Virus record (IMG/VR): IMGVR_UViG_2879765931_000001
Strand: one strand, 5' to 3'
Length of the DNA: 30,734 bases
DNA from: a virus
Lineage: Duplodnaviria; Heunggongvirae; Uroviricota; Caudoviricetes
The position numbers and the translations under genes are program-made. How positions within the stretch are numbered: the stretch's first letter is position 1; every line of letters begins with the position of its first letter. This document shows, piece by piece, positions 9,264-19,480 of this stretch. The notes beneath the pieces are model-generated. The model saw only the letters and a list, made by a program, of their open reading frames with translations. It ran no database searches and was not told the DNA's origin.

Positions 9264-9905
9264 TCAGCGACCAATCACCACAACCTGACCACCATCCCCT
9301 TCGTCTGCCGTGCTGATCTCCTGAGATACCACCCGCGACCCCACGCGCATTTCACCGTACAGAACAGGCAGAACATTGCCCTGGGCAACCATGTTATCCA
9401 GTGAGGAGAAACAGGTGTTCTGTTTGCCGTTATCCGTTGTCTGTGTACGGGGAGTTCTGGCTTTCGGTGCCAGCATCTGTGCAACACCGCCAAGCGTCAT
9501 ACTGGCACCGAGAGAAAACAGCAGATTACTCGCCATAATTCCTACCCCCGGCATCCATATAGCAACCGCCATAACAGCTGCCCCCAGCACCGCCTGAAAC
9601 ACACCGCCACTTTTAGCTCCCACCAGACGCGGTACTATGTGGATCACTGCACCATTTGCCAGCGGCTCATTAAGACGGGCAGACAATTCGGTTTCACCTG
9701 CATCACGCCCGGCAATGCGCACCTGATACCAGCCGTCACTCAGTTTCTGACGAAACGCCGGGAGCTGTGTGGCCAGTGCGCGGATGGCTTCAGCCCCCGT
9801 TTTCACACGAAGGTCGATGCGGCGGCCAAATCGTTGCAAATCCCCGTAAAGGCAGATGCGTGCCATTCCCGGTGACGCCAGAGGGAGTGTGTGCGTCGCT
9901 GCCAT
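9264..9905 (-). CDS. I: Tail assembly protein I
   Basis: 213 aa, MAATHTLPLASPGMARICLYGDLQRFGRR... matches lambda gpI; expected position between K and J. Confidence 0.88.
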   Translation of the reverse strand: MAATHTLPLASPGMARICLYGDLQRFGRRIDLRVKTGAEAIRALATQLPAFRQKLSDGWYQVRIAGRDAGETELSARLNEPLANGAVIHIVPRLVGAKSGGVFQAVLGAAVMAVAIWMPGVGIMASNLLFSLGASMTLGGVAQMLAPKARTPRTQTTDNGKQNTCFSSLDNMVAQGNVLPVLYGEMRVGSRVVSQEISTADEGDGGQVVVIGR

Positions 9906-10546
9906 TTGTCGGTATACCTCTCTCGTTTACTCAGTTGTTCAGGAATATGGTGCAGCAGCTCACCATCGCCGCAGTAAATGGCGGCATGATTCGGCACCGA
10001 TGAACCAAAACAGCACAGCAGCACATCGCCCGGTTGTGCTGATGACAACGGCACCTGATACAGCCCTGTGGCCTCCAGATTATCCAGATAGAGATTCTGA
10101 CCGTGACGCCACCAGTCATCCCCGCGATGAAAATCCGGCATCTCAATCCCCGCCAGATGATAAGCATCCCGGAACAGCGTGTAACAGTCCGTCACCCCGT
10201 GCTCAAAGCGCCGCCCGGTGAGATGCGGCACACAGCGGAACTTGTGAATCGCCCCCCGGCAGACCAGCCACCACGGCAAATCACTCTGCACCTGCAGCCG
10301 CCGGTCAGCCTCACTCAGCCAGGGCAGACCACCGGGATGACTGTGGACCAGTGCCACAATCTCACCCTGCATTTGTGCCCGCAGCCAGTCCTCCGGAGCC
10401 ATCCGGAACCGTTCCTCCGGCTCACCGGAGATATTCTCGCTGGGAAGATACCTGTCTCCCTCCGGCGTTCTCACCACGAAGCCACACGACTCCGCTGGCG
10501 CACATCGCCGGGCGTGCGCCAGAATCGCTGATTCTGTCTGTGTCAT
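9803..10546 (-). CDS. K: Tail assembly protein K (MPN/JAB plus NlpC/P60-like)
   Basis: Starts MTQTESAILAHARRCAPAESCGF at ATG 10546 (internal Met of the longer track ORF) and contains HSHPGG; matches lambda gpK. Confidence 0.88.
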   Translation of the reverse strand: MTQTESAILAHARRCAPAESCGFVVRTPEGDRYLPSENISGEPEERFRMAPEDWLRAQMQGEIVALVHSHPGGLPWLSEADRRLQVQSDLPWWLVCRGAIHKFRCVPHLTGRRFEHGVTDCYTLFRDAYHLAGIEMPDFHRGDDWWRHGQNLYLDNLEATGLYQVPLSSAQPGDVLLCCFGSSVPNHAAIYCGDGELLHHIPEQLSKRERYTDKWQRRTHSLWRHREWHASAFTGICNDLAAASTFV

Positions 10547-10550
10547 GGAT

Positions 10551-11249
10551 TTACTGAGAAAGTTTATTGATGGAAAGGAAACCGCCGAAATTACCGGTAT
10601 TGTTGCGCAACTCACACCCGCGCATACACTTGCTGCATTTGTCCTTCCGGATATCCGTTGTTGGTTTGTCGAACTCGTCAGCCACTGCCCTGCCCGTGTA
10701 ACCACACTCATCAGAACGGTAAGTCCACATACAGGTATTCGCCAGCATGATACGCCCCGGGAAAACCGCGCCATCCGTCTCCGTTGGTGTGGCCAGCACA
10801 AAAGAGGCACTGACCGCGCTCAGTTCGCTGCACTGCTCGATGCGCCAGCGGCTGATCACCTCCTGTTCCGGATCGGCGTCGCTGTTTCCGTTGACGAAGT
10901 TCACCGCATCCAGAAAACGGGCGTAAACCTTACGCCGGACCACCGTTCCGCCGACCAGACTCTGCAGATCTTCCGCCATCCCGGTGACCATGCCGTGCAG
11001 GTTAGAGACCGTCAGTGTCGGACGGGCAGCACAGCCCCTGCCGTTCAGTTCAAACCCCGACCCCTGAATGGGGTATGCCTGATACTGCCGCCCCTGCCAG
11101 GTGACCGGCTCACCTTTTTCGTTCTGCTCATTACAGAAAAAATAACGCTCACCACCGACCTCTGTCAGATCGATTTCCCAGAGCTCCACCCGGGCTGACT
11201 GCTCCGCACGGGTGCATTCATTCAGTGTTTCCTGCCGGATATCCTGCAT
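10551..11249 (-). CDS. L: Minor tail (tail tip) protein L
   Basis: 232 aa beginning MQDIRQETLNECTRAEQSARVELWEIDLTE..., matching lambda gpL. Confidence 0.9.
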   Translation of the reverse strand: MQDIRQETLNECTRAEQSARVELWEIDLTEVGGERYFFCNEQNEKGEPVTWQGRQYQAYPIQGSGFELNGRGCAARPTLTVSNLHGMVTGMAEDLQSLVGGTVVRRKVYARFLDAVNFVNGNSDADPEQEVISRWRIEQCSELSAVSASFVLATPTETDGAVFPGRIMLANTCMWTYRSDECGYTGRAVADEFDKPTTDIRKDKCSKCMRGCELRNNTGNFGGFLSINKLSQ

Positions 11250-11578
11250 CAGTTCACCACCTGTTCAAAATCGGCCGTTACAGTCACCCATAACGCCCCC
11301 ACGCTTGCCGACCATTTACGACAAACCACCCTGATCAGTTTCCAGTCATAAGGTGGCGTCCACTGAAATGCGCGGACGCCACCGTGCCGTTCCAGAAAGG
11401 CTTTTAAAGATGGGTGTTCACCTTTACGAACACGTATCGTCACGCTGTAAGTCGACAACTGGTTATTCAGTCCCGCCGCACGACGCTGTTCATAACCATC
11501 GCCCAGCTTCACTGTCACCACTTTCGGCTCTGATACCACATTCATATCCGGGCGCACTTTCCAGTGAAACGTCTCCAT
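11249..11578 (-). CDS. M: Minor tail protein M
   Basis: 109 aa METFHWKVRPDMNVVSEPKVV..., matching lambda gpM; ATG confirmed at 11578. Confidence 0.9.
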   Translation of the reverse strand: METFHWKVRPDMNVVSEPKVVTVKLGDGYEQRRAAGLNNQLSTYSVTIRVRKGEHPSLKAFLERHGGVRAFQWTPPYDWKLIRVVCRKWSASVGALWVTVTADFEQVVN

Positions 11579-14317
11579 TACCGGTATGCTCCACTTAACC
11601 GGCCACCATCACGGGCCTGCTGTTGCATAAAGTCCGCGGCCGCTTTTTTCCCGAGGTCATAAACCACCTTCAGGGCAGCCGGACCTATCTGCCCGTTCGT
11701 GCCGTCGTTATTGATCTCAATGTTGTACTGCGGGGCAAACATCACCATGCCTGAACCACCAGTATCCGCCACAACCCCCAGCTTACCATCAGCACCGCGA
11801 CGCAGTGGCAGAATGGCTTCAGGTCCCGCTTCCCCCATCACACCCGCGCCTTTTGCAAAAGCAAAAAACGTCGGACGGTTAACCACCGTGCCACTGTAGC
11901 GACTCAAATCAGCAGACTGGTAAACACCGCCATCAGCATTAGTCGTGAAGCCGAATAAAGAACCGACGCCCTTTACCGCCTGCATCATGGCCATCTGTGC
12001 CATAATTCTGGCCATATCTGACAACAGGGAAGAGGTGAAGGATTTAAAATTCAGCTTACCGGTGGTACAGAATGTCGCCAGTGCATTACCGGCACTGCTG
12101 AATGCCACTGTAAACATCTGTTCTGCCGTTCCCGCCGCATTATCCGCATCCGCCGTAAAATTCTGAAACGCCCGCATGGCACCGTTTTTCCAGTCGCCCT
12201 GCGCCACTTCCAGTTCCTGCCAGTAGCGTTTGTTTTCATTCAGTTGTCGCTTCAGGCTCCCCTTCAGCACCTCCTCAGCCCTCCGGTAGTCCTCCGTCCC
12301 GTAAGTGCCTTTCTGGCGACTGTCATTCTCAAGCTGTTGCAACTGTTGCCGGTATTCCTGCCGGATGCGCAACTGTGCCTGGTAGCGCTGCCGCTGCTTA
12401 TCCCCCATACCTGCAGTGGCAATATCCAGATTGTGCTGCTCACGCAGTGCACGTTCTTTGTCTGCCAGCTGGCTGGTCAGCTGAACCGTTTTTTTTTCTC
12501 AGGTCGTTAAGCGCTGTCTGTTTCTGCAGCTCCTGCTGTTTCACATCCAGCAGCGTCAGCGCCTGAATCAGCTCATTCTTACGGGCCAGCACACTCTTTT
12601 CATCTGCCGTCAGCTTTTTCCCGTCCAGGTCGCTGATGCGCTGCTGCAGGGCCAGAAGCTGTTTATGCGCTTCAGTCATCCTTTCAGTGGCAATGCCTGC
12701 TGACTGTCTGGCAGCAGCAATCTGCCCTTCCACCTGTGCCTGCTGCTGACTGTACTGCAGCAATAACCGGGTGGCCTCATCATTACGGGTTGCCCGTGTA
12801 TTTTTCTTAATGGCTTTTTCGTAACGTTCATTTTCACGCTGTATCGCCGCATCCCTGACAGCCTGGTCGGCGTACTGCATGGCATTAATACGCGCAATTT
12901 CCCGCTGATGTCGTGCAGCTTCCGTTTCATTCATCCGGTTCAGCGCGGCATTTTCAGCATTCCGGCGTTTCTGTTGCTCCTGGTAATTCCGTTCTGCCTG
13001 CGCTTTTGCATCCTGCAAATCCTTCCGGCGTTTTTTCTCCTGAAGATCGTTAAGACGCTGCTGATCGTACTCCACCTGTGTGGAGGCGTTTGTCCACGGA
13101 TATTTTTTCGCGCGCTGAATTTTTTCCTGTAACGCATCAATCTGCGCATCCAGCGAGTCTTCACGACCAATATTCATGGCCGCATCCCAGAACTGCTTCC
13201 ACCAGTCAGACAAGGTTTGCAGCGTACTACCCAGCGCATTGAGATTATTATCAATATCAGATGTGCGTTTACCGGTTTCCTCTGCCAGCGCAGACATGGC
13301 GATCCGGGCCGCATCACTGGACCGCCCCTGCTCCCCAAGGACGCGTATCTGCTCAAGCTGAGTGGCATTCAAAAAATGCAGCGCATTGTCCAGCGCCTTC
13401 GCGGCATTTACAGGATCATCCTTCAGCCGCTTAAACTGATTTATGGTATCGCTGACCGACTGGCCAACCGATCGCTCCATCTGTGCGGCAGCTTTCGCCA
13501 CCATACCAATATCGTTTCCATGAAATGCCCCACTGCCCACCACCTGTGCCAGCGCACCGGCTGCCGCATGTTGCGTGATACCATTCCCGGATATGGCCCG
13601 GCTGAGTTTCCACAACTGCCCGACAGTGACACCGGCATAATGTCCCGTCAGCGCCAGCTGACGGTTAAATTTCTCGCCCTCCTTCCGGCCGTCATGCCAG
13701 GCTTTACCCAGACCCAGGACCGCCGCGACAAGTCCGCCAATAACGCCGCCAGTCATCATGCCTTTCGGCGACATCAGTGCGCCTGTCCATCCGGCACGGT
13801 TAGCCAGCGTTATCCCGGATCCCCTCAGCGCACCAAAATTGCCGCGCGCCATCTGACTGATTAACACCCCCAGCTCCCGCCGGGCTGCCGCACTTTTCAG
13901 CCCCAGCGAATGTGTGGCTTTTCCTGCCCGCTCCATTTTGCGGATATACACTTCTGCAGCACTGCTTACCCCCAGCTGAGCCGCCCTGGCCTGCGCCTGT
14001 TCCTCGCGCATTTTCTGATTCAGGGCATCCACGCGCAGACGGGTTTGTTCCACCTCACGGGCCATGCGTTCATGAGCCCGTGCATTCTTCTCCACCGTCT
14101 GCGCATGGGCTGATGCTGCTGTTGCAGCCGAAGAAGCCGCCTGCATTGTCTGCCGGGCCGCCTGAGTCTGACGCTCCATAAAACGCTGCATACGGGCAGA
14201 AGACCGTTCTGCATCGCTGGCTGCACCATTCAGAAGGTTTTTGATACGGGGAATTTCATTTTTAAACTCTGCCGCATCAATCCCCAAATCAATGACCAGG
14301 TTGGCTATCTGGTCCAT
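11578..14317 (-). pseudogene. H: Tail tape measure protein H, interrupted by a frameshift in a 9-nt homopolymer
   Basis: N-terminal ORF (12440-14347; likely ATG at 14317 with GGAGGTG RBS) and C-terminal ORF (11578-12408, ending ...GQIGPAALKVVYDLGKKAAADFMQQQARDGGRLSGAYR like lambda H) are in different frames; the switch is at plus 12489-12497 (T9 / A9 on the coding strand); removing one A restores a continuous reading frame. Confidence 0.82.
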
Positions 14318-15013
14318 AACGCACACCTCCGGAAATACCTTCCCCAAGATGCATCAGTTCTTCGTCCGTTCGCTCCGGTATCCCGTTCTCTTCCGGTAAA
14401 AGGCTGAAATCAGCCACCGCAGCATCGCTGCTGCCGGACACCATTCTCACGATCAATGCCTTCAGCGAGGCAAACTGCGCATCCATCCACACATCACTGA
14501 AGCTCTGCATCCGGAAATAATCGCCCCACTCACCAAGCTCAGTGGCCGACATATCCGACAGCATCCGCCGCCAGTCTGCCCGCCGGAACTCCCGGGCAAG
14601 CCGCATGACAAACTGCATTTCCCGCGTCAGGACTTTTCCGGCGTCAGCGCCTCATGATCATCATCCCCGGCATTCTCAATGGTCCCCATACCGCTCAGCG
14701 ACAGAACCCTCTCCGCCCCCGCGCCCAGCGCATCATACGACCATGTTGTCATAATGGATGCGCAAAGCGTCTCAACATCCTGAGACTGCTCAGCATTCCA
14801 CAGTGAGCGGGAAACCAGCCAGGCATTGATATCCATTCCCATACGCAGAAAAGCAATCTGTCGTTCAGCCTCCGGCAGTTCTCCCTCCTGTGCATCAAAC
14901 TTTGCCGTTCGCTGCTGAACAAACGTCAGATATTCAATTCTCTGCAGCCCGGACAGCTCACTGAGCACCACGGACTGTTTTTCATAATTAAACGTATCCT
15001 GTTTCAGAAACAT
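14289..15013 (-). CDS. T: Tail assembly chaperone G-T fusion (inferred -1 programmed frameshift near the 3' end of G; T frame 14289-14651)
   Basis: The T frame is open from 14651 and overlaps the last 8 codons of G; the only slip-prone stretch in the overlap is CCGGAAAAG, at the position where lambda has GGGAAAG; conserved G/T arrangement of lambdoid phages. Confidence 0.6.
14627..15013 (-). CDS. G: Tail assembly chaperone G
   Basis: MFLKQDTFNYEKQSVVLSELSGLQRIEYL... resembles lambda gpG; ATG at 15013. Confidence 0.85.
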   Translation of the reverse strand: MFLKQDTFNYEKQSVVLSELSGLQRIEYLTFVQQRTAKFDAQEGELPEAERQIAFLRMGMDINAWLVSRSLWNAEQSQDVETLCASIMTTWSYDALGAGAERVLSLSGMGTIENAGDDDHEALTPEKS

Positions 15014-15071
15014 CATGTTCTCCGGATGCAAAAAGCCCCGGATAACCGGGGCAATGATGAGTATCGTCCTG

Positions 15072-15812
15072 TTATGGTGCGCTGACGGTCACCGCAGCCA
15101 CTGCCACAAACTCTCCGTCAGAGGTCATGCCCACGATGCTGACACTGCCCTGCTTCACGCCTTTCACCGTGGCCACAAGCCCGCTCAGGGTCACCGAAGC
15201 AGTCTGAGGATCTGACGAATGCACACTGATCGCTTTGTCACTGGCCCCGTCAGGTTTTACTGTAAAGGTCAGTGTGGTGGTTGCTCCCGCTTTGACACTG
15301 ACAGATGCCGGTGCCACCGTCAGTCCGGTAACACCCACGGTTTCAGTGCCTTCCTCTGCCAGATACGGACGCCCCACACCGCTGATTTTCACAGTGCGGG
15401 TCATCACGTCTTTTGAGGCAATGGTTTTACCCAGTGAGCTCAGCCAGCCGCGGAAAACATCAACAGTGCCGTTGGGATATTTGATACGAAACGCGCAGAC
15501 TTCACCGGAGTCGAACAACTGAACCAGTTTTTTCTGCCCGCTGTCACCCGGACGCCAGGCCAGCGTCGCCGAAGTATCACCAACGGATTTCTGCCCCTGG
15601 GTTGTCGTTTTCCAGTCTGCATCTTCATCATCAAGATAAGTGTCATCTTCTGCATCAGCGGTCATTTCGCCAGGTTGCAGATCCTTCACCATCGCAAGAC
15701 GCAGCCAGTCAGTGTCCGACAAAGGGTTCGCAAACGCATCGCCGTTGCCGGTATACATCCAGAACGTCGTCCCCGCACCTTTCGTCTTTGCCAGTGGATT
15801 TGGTGTGGTCAT
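15072..15812 (-). CDS. V: Major tail protein V
   Basis: 246 aa from ATG 15812 (AAGGAGG RBS); MTTPNPLAKTKGAGTTFWMYTG...DDEDADW...NGTVDVFRGW matches lambda gpV, with a C-terminal Ig-like region. Confidence 0.92.
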   Translation of the reverse strand: MTTPNPLAKTKGAGTTFWMYTGNGDAFANPLSDTDWLRLAMVKDLQPGEMTADAEDDTYLDDEDADWKTTTQGQKSVGDTSATLAWRPGDSGQKKLVQLFDSGEVCAFRIKYPNGTVDVFRGWLSSLGKTIASKDVMTRTVKISGVGRPYLAEEGTETVGVTGLTVAPASVSVKAGATTTLTFTVKPDGASDKAISVHSSDPQTASVTLSGLVATVKGVKQGSVSIVGMTSDGEFVAVAAVTVSAP

Positions 15813-15822
15813 TACCACCTCC

Positions 15823-16224
15823 TTAATTCGTGTACGTGATCTGGTACGTGATTTCCGCCATCGCCCAGGTAGCCATCTCATTATCACGTTGATAGTTAAA
15901 ACCGAGTGGGTTCAGGGTGTCGATGAGTCCGGAAAGTGCCGGTACATCATTCAGGGCCGGGAAAATGGTGCTCTCCATCCACATATCCAGCTCTGAATCC
16001 GGTGCCTGTGCCCGGATGAAGACGGCAATATGCAGAACAGCCTGCCAGTCATCTTCATCCGTCATTTTTCCGGTGTACTGAGCATCACTCAGCCACACCG
16101 CCACGGCAGGCAGTTCCTGCGCATCAATAAATGCCGGAAGCCCGTCAAAAAACGTGGCGCTGTCTCCACACTGTTCCCGAAGGCGTGCCAGCACGCTCTG
16201 ACGGATTTGTGTGTGTCGGTTCAT
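15823..16224 (-). CDS. U: Minor tail protein U (tail terminator)
   Basis: 133 aa; ...ATFFDG.PA..D...PAVAV... and ...DSELD.WMES.I.P... match lambda gpU. Confidence 0.9.
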   Translation of the reverse strand: MNRHTQIRQSVLARLREQCGDSATFFDGLPAFIDAQELPAVAVWLSDAQYTGKMTDEDDWQAVLHIAVFIRAQAPDSELDMWMESTIFPALNDVPALSGLIDTLNPLGFNYQRDNEMATWAMAEITYQITYTN

Positions 16225-16808
16225 TTACTCAGATGTAACCTCAGTTGTTGTTTCAGGGCATACCCCAGCTGTTTCGGCATTTCCGCAGCAATGATGCGGT
16301 CGCGGGCATCTTCAAATGCCTGTGTCAGCGGTCCGGACATCGGGATTTTCACCACATCAATGGGGTAACGATTTTTGCCGTCAATACGCCGCATCACATG
16401 CCAGCGACCATTCGCCAGTTGCTGAATAAACGCATCCCGGAAAAGGTATTTCCCCACTTTCAGTACGCTGCCACGATGACGTGAGTTGCTGCCATGCCGG
16501 GAGCGGGCCAGTCTGACCTGTGCGGTACCCAGCTTAATGGCGGGCAGGTTACCCCGGTTAACACGCATGCGGGCATACATTTTTCCTGAGGGGCTGGCTT
16601 TAAGCAGCCTGACACGCTCCCTGACCGTTTTCAGGGGAATACCTTTCACCTGGTTATCCCCGGCAACGGTATTCTGCGCAACCTGCCGTGTGGCGACAGA
16701 AACAATCTTTGCCGCCACACGGTTTACCGCCCATGCGCTGGTCTGTGGCACCATGCGGGTATCGAGGCTGTTCAGATTGCGGATGGCATTCTCAAGTCCC
16801 TTCATCAT
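16221..16808 (-). CDS. Z: Tail completion protein Z
   Basis: 195 aa in the gpZ position between FII and U, overlapping U by 4 nt; assigned mainly by size and synteny. Confidence 0.85.
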   Translation of the reverse strand: MMKGLENAIRNLNSLDTRMVPQTSAWAVNRVAAKIVSVATRQVAQNTVAGDNQVKGIPLKTVRERVRLLKASPSGKMYARMRVNRGNLPAIKLGTAQVRLARSRHGSNSRHRGSVLKVGKYLFRDAFIQQLANGRWHVMRRIDGKNRYPIDVVKIPMSGPLTQAFEDARDRIIAAEMPKQLGYALKQQLRLHLSK

Positions 16809-17169
16809 ATCGCCTCATTCTGGCATTATTCTGTGGGGCAGGACTGCCCCGCCTTAACCGGATATAACAGCATCCCCCGTCATCCGGAGTAATACGATCC
16901 ACAAAGAAAGAATCATCCCCGATAGTTAACGTATCCTGACGGCGTAACTGCGATATATCTGCCGTTTTCACAAACAGGCACGGTGAGGAATCCTCAAGCC
17001 GGATCCCCCCGGCAACAAAAGAAATACTTTCGGGATCATCAAAAACCCCTGTCAGGTGTGTCCCCTCAAGTTCTCCGGACGTAATGACGGCGCTGATCCC
17101 CATATCACGGAGAATGACTTCATTGACACCGGCAAGCGCAGCATCAAACAGATTATCGAAACCGTCCAC
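16792..17169 (-). CDS. FII: Head-tail joining protein FII
   Basis: MDGFDNLFDAALAG...GVFDDPESISF...DTLTIGDDSFFVDRITPDDGG matches lambda gpFII. Confidence 0.85.
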   Translation of the reverse strand: MDGFDNLFDAALAGVNEVILRDMGISAVITSGELEGTHLTGVFDDPESISFVAGGIRLEDSSPCLFVKTADISQLRRQDTLTIGDDSFFVDRITPDDGGCCYIRLRRGSPAPQNNARMRRYDEGT

Positions 17170-17180
17170 GACATCTCCTG

Positions 17181-17567
17181 TTACTGCCTTTTTGCCAGAC
17201 CACCTGCCGCCATGCTGGCAGCCACCTCAGCAGAAACACGAAACGACGTTCCCGGTGAAACAAATATCACTGAACCATTACATTTTGTATGCAGTGTCGC
17301 CAGTGCCACCACCGTAACCTGCCCCGTTTCGTCTCCGGTAACAATGCCTGGCTGTTCAGGAACTGACTCGCCTTTATGCGCGGTCGGATCATCTTTCGAT
17401 GGTGAGTACGTATCCGGCTCTGCGACCTCCCCCGCATCTCCAAGCTCTTCCTCCAGTTCCGCCACTCGCTGCGCAATATCTGCCGCACTACCGGAGACAT
17501 CCGGTTCACGCCCCAGCCTCTCAGCCAGCTCACAAAGACGTTTCAGGTTTTCTTCTTTCGTAGCCAT
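17181..17567 (-). CDS. FI: DNA packaging / head completion protein FI
   Basis: Start at ATG 17567 (MATKEENLKRL..., AGGAG RBS); C-terminal ...VTVVALATLHT...FRVSAEVAASMAAGGLAKRQ matches lambda gpFI. Confidence 0.8.
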   Translation of the reverse strand: MATKEENLKRLCELAERLGREPDVSGSAADIAQRVAELEEELGDAGEVAEPDTYSPSKDDPTAHKGESVPEQPGIVTGDETGQVTVVALATLHTKCNGSVIFVSPGTSFRVSAEVAASMAAGGLAKRQ

Positions 17568-18056
17568 ACCCGCTCCTGATTGAATGAAAAACGGGAGCAT
17601 TTAGCTCCCGCTCACGGATTATTTCACCTGCACCACCACAAACTCATCCGGATCCGGCAGCACCATCAGCGGCGCGGACTGCGTCATGGTGAATTCACGC
17701 GCCGGATCACCCACGGTCAGCCAGTGTTTCGGATAACGGGAAGACGCCACCACGCCTTCAGACAATGCCTGCGCATCCTGAATGGCACCGTAGCAACGAA
17801 TACCCTCTGCGGCCGTATTTCCCAGTACCAGTGTGCCGTCCGGCAGATAACGTTTTTCGGTACCGTCCTCTGCCACATAGGACGTTTTTGCCACCACGAT
17901 TGCCAGATCACCATAATACCCTTTGAAGGACACCACCGCCCCCAGGTCTTTCACTGCCGTTTCCAGCTGTGAATTTGAGCCACGACGGGTATCCAGTTTT
18001 TGGTAATGCTGCCAACTTACTGATTTAGTGTATGATGGTGATTTTAAGGTGCTTGC

Positions 18057-18332
18057 GTGGCTTCCATTTCCATCAGATGTCCTTCCTGCTCCGCTACTGA
18101 AGGCGTGGTGCGTAACGGCAAAAGCACTGCCGGACATCAGCGCTATCTCTGCTCTCATTGCCGTAAAACATGGCAACTACAGTTCACTTACACCGCCTCT
18201 CAGCCCGGTACGCACCAGAAAATCATTGATATGGCCATGAATGGCGTCGGATGTCGCGCCAGTGCACGCATTATGGGCGTTGGCCTCAACACGGTTTTAC
18301 GTCACTTAAAAAACTCAGGCCGCAGTCGGTAA
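18057..18332 (+). CDS. insA: IS1 InsA (transposition inhibitor / DNA-binding protein)
   Basis: 91 aa [43 protein letters not shown]... matches InsA. Confidence 0.92.
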
Positions 18333-18754
18333 CCTCGCGCATACAACCGGGCAGTGATGTGATTGTCTGCGCTGAAATGGACGAACATTGGGGCTACGTC
18401 GGTGCTAAATCACGTCAGCGCTGGCTGTTTTACGCGTATGACAGGATACGGAGGACGGTTGTGGCGCACGTCTTCGGGGAACGCACTCTGGCCACACTGG
18501 AGCGTCTTCTGAGCCTGCTGTCGGCCTTTGAGGTCGTGGTATGGATGACGGATGGCTGGCCGCTGTATGAATCACGCCTGAAGGGAAAGCTGCACGTTAT
18601 CAGCAAGCGTTACACTCAGCGCATTGAGCGACATAATCTGAATCTGAGACAACATCTGGCAAGGCTGGGACGGAAGTCACTGTCGTTCTCAAAATCGGTG
18701 GAGCTGCATGACAAGGTCATCGGGCATTATCTGAACATAAAACACTATCAGTAA
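18251..18754 (+). CDS. insB: IS1 InsB reading frame (expressed as InsAB' transposase via -1 frameshift at the A6C motif 18309-18315)
   Basis: InsB-like translation (...[33 protein letters not shown]...MTDGWPLYE...); TTAAAAAACTC slippery motif at the end of insA. Confidence 0.88.
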
Positions 18755-19480
18755 GTTGGAGTCATTACCCAGTTTTTCGCGGAACAGCTTAAAGCCATTC
18801 AGCAGACGCCAGACCTTACCATCCATAATGGCAATATTGATGGTGCCGGAAGCAAAATCACAGTACGCATCCAGATCATGCGTCGGATCAAAGGTATCGC
18901 GGTCCTGAGCGCTCCACTCCGTCCCTCCTGCCTGCGTAATGTTATTTCCCACCGACCGGCCAAAATCGACCTCAACAGTTTCAAACTGCTCTCCTTCCAT
19001 GGTGTATTTGCCATACAGCACGGCATTCACCGCCTGCATCTCTTCCACCTGGACAATGGCGTGCTCTTCCTGTTTGAGGTTATCGGTGATGATACGCAGG
19101 CGACGGTAAGCCGGGTCGTTCAGCTGGGCCGGATCTTCACCGGGAAGACGCTCCACCGCCTGCTGGTAATTAAATTCGTGTTTCGGCTTAACGTAGCCCG
19201 GGCGCAGTACACGAGTTTCACCGCCACGGTGACGCAACACCTTTCCTTCAACAACCGGGGAGACATAGGCCGCCACCGGCGTTTTTCCGGTAATTTTGTC
19301 CAGCATTACCTCTTCGGTATGGAAATTCACCGTACGGCGGAAAAACAGCTCCAGAAACAGCGCACGAAATTTAACTTTTTGTTCGGTATAACCGAGTAAC
19401 TGGCGGGTCGTAAACAATCCCATAAATCAGTTCCTTTCATTCAGAAATCAGTCAGGCTACCGCAGTGACCTGATAAAATG

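Follow-up and report, generated by a model that had tools for sequence, protein, structure and literature searches.

The length of a phage tail is proportional to that of its tape-measure protein, which in the lambda gpH family comes from an uninterrupted open reading frame (ORF) of ~850-1000 codons. Lambda gpH and its relatives of the mEp460/cdtI type are characterized by the domains TMP_2, TMP_4 and Tape_meas_lam_C and by the gene order V-G-T-H-M-L-K-I-J, and the tape-measure gene H that we analyse here shares both, its DNA being 88% identical to H of mEp460, cdtI, Ayreon and other phages. However, contrary to lambda gpH, a +1 frameshift divides this gene into ORFs of 625 and 276 amino acids (aa), and the gene lies inside a prophage that cannot form particles. 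It is thus a frameshifted allele (pseudogene) of the gpH family.

Several described systems resemble this split at a homopolymer. The pseudo-pseudogenes, in which some mRNAs regain the reading frame (Baranov et al. 2005, Genome Biol 6:R25, PMC1088944), share with it an 8-A run that has turned into a slippage-prone 9-A run in only some isolates, against a background of single-ORF homologs; contrary to those cases, the gene studied here belongs to a defunct prophage, where a rescue would have no obvious use. The Shigella flexneri gene mxiE comes from the same organism group and likewise consists of two overlapping ORFs joined at a 9-nt homopolymer. In mxiE, however, the two-ORF state at the T/U run is normal, conserved and needed for expression, whereas here it is a rare derived allele and the single ORF with eight A residues (A8) is the norm. 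IS elements also keep a conserved two-ORF arrangement, unlike this H gene. The contingency loci of Haemophilus, Neisseria and Campylobacter, finally, have in common with it a coding-region homopolymer that varies in length among isolates, but the present tract is short and unconserved in homologs, and the gene has no surface or restriction function.

The window, by which we mean the whole stretch of 30,734 nucleotides that was analysed, is an exact stretch of the chromosome CP026871.1 (4,490,253 bp). The element is a lambdoid prophage with ipaH, of the Shigella/EIEC type, and is syntenic with the ipaH prophage of an enteroinvasive E. coli (EIEC) strain. The matching proteins bear Shigella names at their source, including a 912-aa entry named 'MULTISPECIES: phage tail tape measure protein [Shigella]'. 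The features of the H gene are the following:

11578..14317, minus strand: whole gpH-like tape-measure gene, 912 aa if the tract is A8, with the G/T chaperone genes on one side and M/L/K/I/J on the other
12440..14317, minus strand: N-terminal tape-measure fragment, 625 aa, with Pfam TMP_2 and TMP_4 (gene call on an exact substring of the window, L004)
12489..12497, minus strand: A9 homopolymer, T9 on the plus strand (tract length read from the sequence)
11578..12408, minus strand: C-terminal tape-measure fragment, 276 aa from its first ATG, with Pfam Tape_meas_lam_C
13983..13990, minus strand: junction of a 303-bp (101-codon) in-frame deletion relative to a 1013-aa allele, at the 8-bp direct repeat GCCAGGGC (coding strand)

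The N-terminal ORF starts at the ATG at 14317 and passes the run as ...LNDLRKK, after which the frame is lost and 18 out-of-frame residues (NGSADQPAGRQRTCTA*) lead to the stop at 12440. The downstream frame starts directly past the tract, its first ATG at 12408 opening the ORF that ends at 11578. The original prediction held that the frames of H switch exactly at the T9 run, A9 on the coding strand, and that A8 would give one protein of ~912 aa; the tract and the ORFs confirm the former, and deletion of one T from the run reproduces the latter, yielding a single 912-aa ORF with the same junction peptide as had been proposed, ...LNDLRKKTVQLTSQLADKERALREQHNLDIATAGMGDKQRQRY... Relative to the ancestral A8, the tract carries a +1 insertion within the codons AGA AAA AAA A(CG), which read R K K T. 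The identification of the interrupted gene as a lambda-H-type tape measure is also upheld, both by its domains and by its position. Precomputed Pfam hits assign PF06791 and PF24622 to the 625-aa fragment and PF09718 to the 276-aa one, and all three occur together on the intact 912-aa protein. The placement of H between G/T and M, L, K, I, J follows from how the syntenic EIEC prophage is annotated and from the genes called on exact copies of the window.

No other homopolymer of the window reaches nine residues, the next longest being a single A8 at 3498-3505. The occurrence of such a run by chance is not rare, since 29% of the sequences simulated from the window with a first-order Markov model had an A/T run of at least 9. 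The non-random feature is therefore the fact that the frame break falls on the run, rather than the existence of the run. Compared with close relatives, the sole indel is in the tract, and it amounts to exactly one base of the run.

The 303-bp deletion listed above defines what we call the short backbone (912 aa), as opposed to the long one (1013 aa), both alleles being common (~1000 contigs or more each). The 8-bp repeat at its junction suggests that the segment was lost by microhomology. If a functional phage carried the short allele, its tail would be expected to be ~15 nm shorter. The length gap between the best E. coli matches and the window (3203 versus 2901 bases) was considered as a cause of the frame break and rejected: it consists of this in-frame deletion, ~1.5 kb off, plus one base of the tract, so that the deletion is unrelated to the frameshift. 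As for the G and T genes themselves, the lambda slippery heptamer GGGAAAG was not found near their junction.

The same chromosome contains a second copy of the tail module, at 3,513,062-3,521,800 (locus L017), which encodes an intact 912-aa protein. Against positions 8578-16750 of the window (~8.2 kb), the only difference is the extra A in the window, so that the change from A8 to A9 is very recent. Identity between the two copies collapses at 16750-17265, with 134 differences in ~500 bp, in what is evidently a mosaic boundary within the head-tail joining genes.

To establish how common each tract state is, the product predicted for each tract length was looked up as an exact protein in a public protein collection, with the following counts:

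Long backbone, A8: 1013 aa, at least 1000 contigs
Short backbone, A8: 912 aa, 995 contigs (2185 index blocks)
Long backbone, A7: 713 aa, 21 contigs, one of them common to 20 or more samples
Long backbone, A9: 726 aa, 3 contigs (CP026788.1, CP026793.1 and SRR6181323)
Short backbone, A9: 625 aa, the window and the Logan contig SRR35896918_304
Short backbone, A7: 612 aa, one Logan contig (SRR13259097)

No exact-protein match was found for the A6 or A10 products of either backbone. The 276-aa C-terminal ORF, which would result from any such frameshift, matches 31 contigs (42 index blocks). Overall, the frameshifted states make up ~1-2% of contigs, the two-ORF state being present in ~30-40 of them against ~2000 or more that are intact. 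In IMG/VR, each of the 11 close relatives has A8. When IMG/VR and the GTDB species representatives were scanned for the pattern, A8 came up 27 times, A7 four times and A5 once; the GTDB representatives alone contributed four stretches, all of them A8, two of these being in indel-rich assemblies. The A5 case (IMGVR_UViG_2537561977_000007, positions 417-454) has lost one Lys codon in frame, a 3-base change of the tract. A8 is both ancestral and the state of the majority.

When 44 copies of the gene were aligned, frameshifted states fell on at least five SNP haplotypes. A7, A8 and A9 were each found on otherwise identical gene sequences, and elsewhere no more than a few SNPs over 3 kb separate the copies. 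So many haplotypes amid near-identical genes point to recurrent events, and the tract is a mutational hot spot with repeated length changes in both directions among Shigella prophage copies. Gene conversion between prophage copies may lower the number of independent events, and the counts are to be read with the fact that some A7 cases come from older drafts, where homopolymer errors could inflate them, and that one copy (L010) has a further 1-bp length difference.

The history of the run can be followed in more distant homologs. Among 80 IMG/VR relatives, those with 85-89% protein identity mostly carry an in-frame A7 (68 of the 80), written CTG AAG AAA AAA ACA, and one carries A6, A8 being restricted to a clade of ~99% identity. 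The A8 run arose within the Shigella/EIEC clade, where it is a side effect of the codons for Arg-Lys-Lys. The idea of a conserved programmed recoding site was rejected, given that 69 of these 80 viral-contig homologs have a shorter in-frame run and that nearly all homologs have a single ORF.

One candidate reference genome stands apart. In the EIEC relative, E. coli CFSAN029787 (NZ_CP011416.1, given as a 'complete' genome), single bases are missing at dozens of places over the region matching ~4100-7150 of the window (J, lom and tail fibre), and the annotation of that genome itself flags the genes of its J/tail-fibre region as frameshifted. These deficits look like a local assembly error, which makes the genome a poor reference for indels. 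Once it had been set aside, the comparison relied on the exact-protein look-ups and on Logan and NCBI contigs.

The H gene is not the only damaged part of this prophage. An IS1 of 768 bp (18002-18769), flanked by the target duplication CAGTTTTT, splits the major capsid gene (lambda E-like); the corresponding copy of S. flexneri SFBU1023 lacks this element. At ~20155-20240 lies a deletion junction, where the alignment to the EIEC prophage leaves the protease (C) gene and resumes ~10 kb on, in the lysozyme region; the portal, the terminase, most lysis genes and a part of the protease gene are absent. The tail-tip gene J is also split, into ORFs at 6465-9203 (912 aa) and 5723-6490 (255 aa) on the minus strand, by a 1-bp insertion at 6485 outside any homopolymer (ACC-CG to ACCACG on the plus strand). 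This lesion is shared by the second copy and by several other assemblies, including a Logan contig, whereas other relatives have an intact J of 1159 aa. An IS3-family element and an integrase gene are found at the right end of the window. With this gene content, the prophage is already dead, and the formation of particles impossible.

We consider it most probable, at roughly 75%, that H was split by a genuine slippage mutation from A8 to A9, in a hypermutable tract of a defunct prophage. Repeated length change is expected from replication slippage at an 8-nt homopolymer, and Baranov et al. (2005, PMC1088944) likewise note replication slippage at homopolymers of this type. Most likely, strand slippage during DNA replication at the longest homopolymer of the gene led to the gain of one A. 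The frame would then be lost after Lys-Lys and the ribosome would stop 18 codons further on, giving a 625-aa N-terminal product, and the last 276 or more residues, including the lambda-type C-terminal domain, would be untranslated or translated separately. Since the prophage cannot make particles, there would be no selection against changes of the tract or against the break in H; a frameshift in a dead prophage costs nothing, which fits neutral decay and a break without function. Both the event and the gene are of a known kind, and the case is best read as ordinary gene decay with no new mechanism. Real inactivation had been one of the options of the original prediction and is the best reading of the data, as one lesion among several; its extension to a fixed pseudogene does not hold, A8 being found on ~1000 or more contigs per backbone.

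The best surviving of the alternatives, even if an unlikely one, is that the extra base is an artefact, that is, that both copies are truly A8 and that the ninth residue is a consensus error of long reads in the longest homopolymer of a long exact repeat. The complete genomes with A9 offer some grounds for this. All three of them, namely CP026871.1, CP026788.1 (S. flexneri ATCC 29903) and CP026793.1 (S. flexneri 74-1170), have neighbouring accessions within one series, which, to judge by the neighbouring accession numbers, apparently represents a PacBio project on historical Shigella strains and is probably PacBio-only. In addition, the tract sits inside an exact repeat of at least 8.2 kb, the hardest place to polish, where the second copy differs by this base alone, and the A8 protein is overwhelmingly commoner than the A9 product. 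However, an artefact should not recur in independent sequence of the same allele, and this A9 does: the Logan contig SRR35896918_304, drawn from 4 samples, has the same short backbone with A9 and a single SNP (15633) relative to the window over 6.9 kb. A9 on the long backbone is also present in the Logan contig SRR6181323. Another Logan contig, compared over 11.7 kb, shows only 3 SNPs relative to the window besides the difference in the tract, with no other indel despite the many 6-8-nt homopolymers there, which speaks against a general homopolymer problem in the assembly of this region. The case for A9 in CP026871.1 rests on independent assemblies, and within this limit a pure assembly artefact appears unlikely.

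A second alternative concerns only the consequence of the lesion and is compatible with the preferred explanation of a real slippage mutation. The gene could be a leaky pseudo-pseudogene, where the RNA polymerase would slip on the A9/T9 run, some mRNAs would have A8 or A11, and full-length protein would be made. Runs of 9A or 9T are slippage-prone in many bacteria, and mxiE of Shigella is cited as a user of transcriptional slippage (Baranov et al. 2005, PMC1088944). The window displays exactly the change from A8 to A9, and it combines this frameshift mutation with single-ORF homologs, as expected of a pseudo-pseudogene. However, transcription of the tail genes is doubtful, given the IS1 insertion and the 10-kb deletion upstream in the late operon, a full-length protein would find no particle to build, and the chromosome has an intact A8 copy at another place. 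Taken together, we regard a rescue of this type as quite improbable.

The same idea can be carried further, to an A8/A9 tract acting as a leaky switch, with the RNA polymerase slipping on A9 and the ribosome slipping by -1 on the A_AAA_AAA of the A7 alleles, so that some full-length protein would be made, a working tail module would be retained, and changes in tract length would tune the dosage. If it were true, Shigella lineages with a 'broken' H might complement other prophage copies or form tail-like particles, but we consider this proposal very improbable.

Scarcely credible, finally, is an adaptive contingency (phase-variable) locus, in which the tract would be retained for a benefit of switching H on and off to host or phage: even though the tract is polymorphic among isolates (A5, A7, A8 and A9), in both directions and on several backgrounds, its 8-9 nt would be short next to known contingency tracts, frameshifted states are as rare as described above, the tract consists only of Lys codons and is not kept by selection across the 80 IMG/VR relatives, whose prevalent in-frame A7, with one A6, indicates no selection for a long run, and the loss of the portal and terminase genes together with a broken capsid gene and J leaves no plausible phenotype to switch. 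Of the slippage-prone contingency site that had been suggested, the proneness to slippage stands as a mutational property, seen as A5, A7, A8 and A9 on several haplotypes, and the adaptive role does not, in view of the defective prophage and of a tract unconserved in distant homologs; the artefact that had been offered next to it is likewise improbable, since A9 recurs on the same backbone in an independent contig.

The split H is a frameshifted allele of a familiar gene that is abundant in intact form, and the finding carries little weight beyond annotation. What deserves to be flagged is that the A8 tract mutates recurrently in the ipaH prophages of Shigella, a hot spot that pipelines should not over-read as a programmed frameshift, a signal of assembly quality or a marker of outbreaks. 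The window also represents a clean natural A8-to-A9 situation of the pseudo-pseudogene type, suitable for measuring transcriptional slippage in Shigella.

Further observations concern other parts of the window. At the tail-fibre end, 1060-2823 on the plus strand holds an intact gene for an IpaH-type effector of 587 aa, with LRR_TTSS and NEL E3 ligase domains, the one cargo gene still whole amid decaying phage genes. CP026793.1 has 2 more bases in the A8 run at 3498-3505, where the tail-fibre and DUF4376 genes meet. The tail-fibre ORF has 485 aa in the window versus 367 aa in CP026788.1 and CP026793.1, owing to an indel of 4 bp at 3941-3944. Four prophage tRNA genes lie at 21414-21724 on the minus strand, namely Gly-TCC, Thr-TGT, Arg-TCT and one with a CAT anticodon, the last being assigned to Met by ARAGORN and to Ile in the record of the syntenic EIEC prophage.
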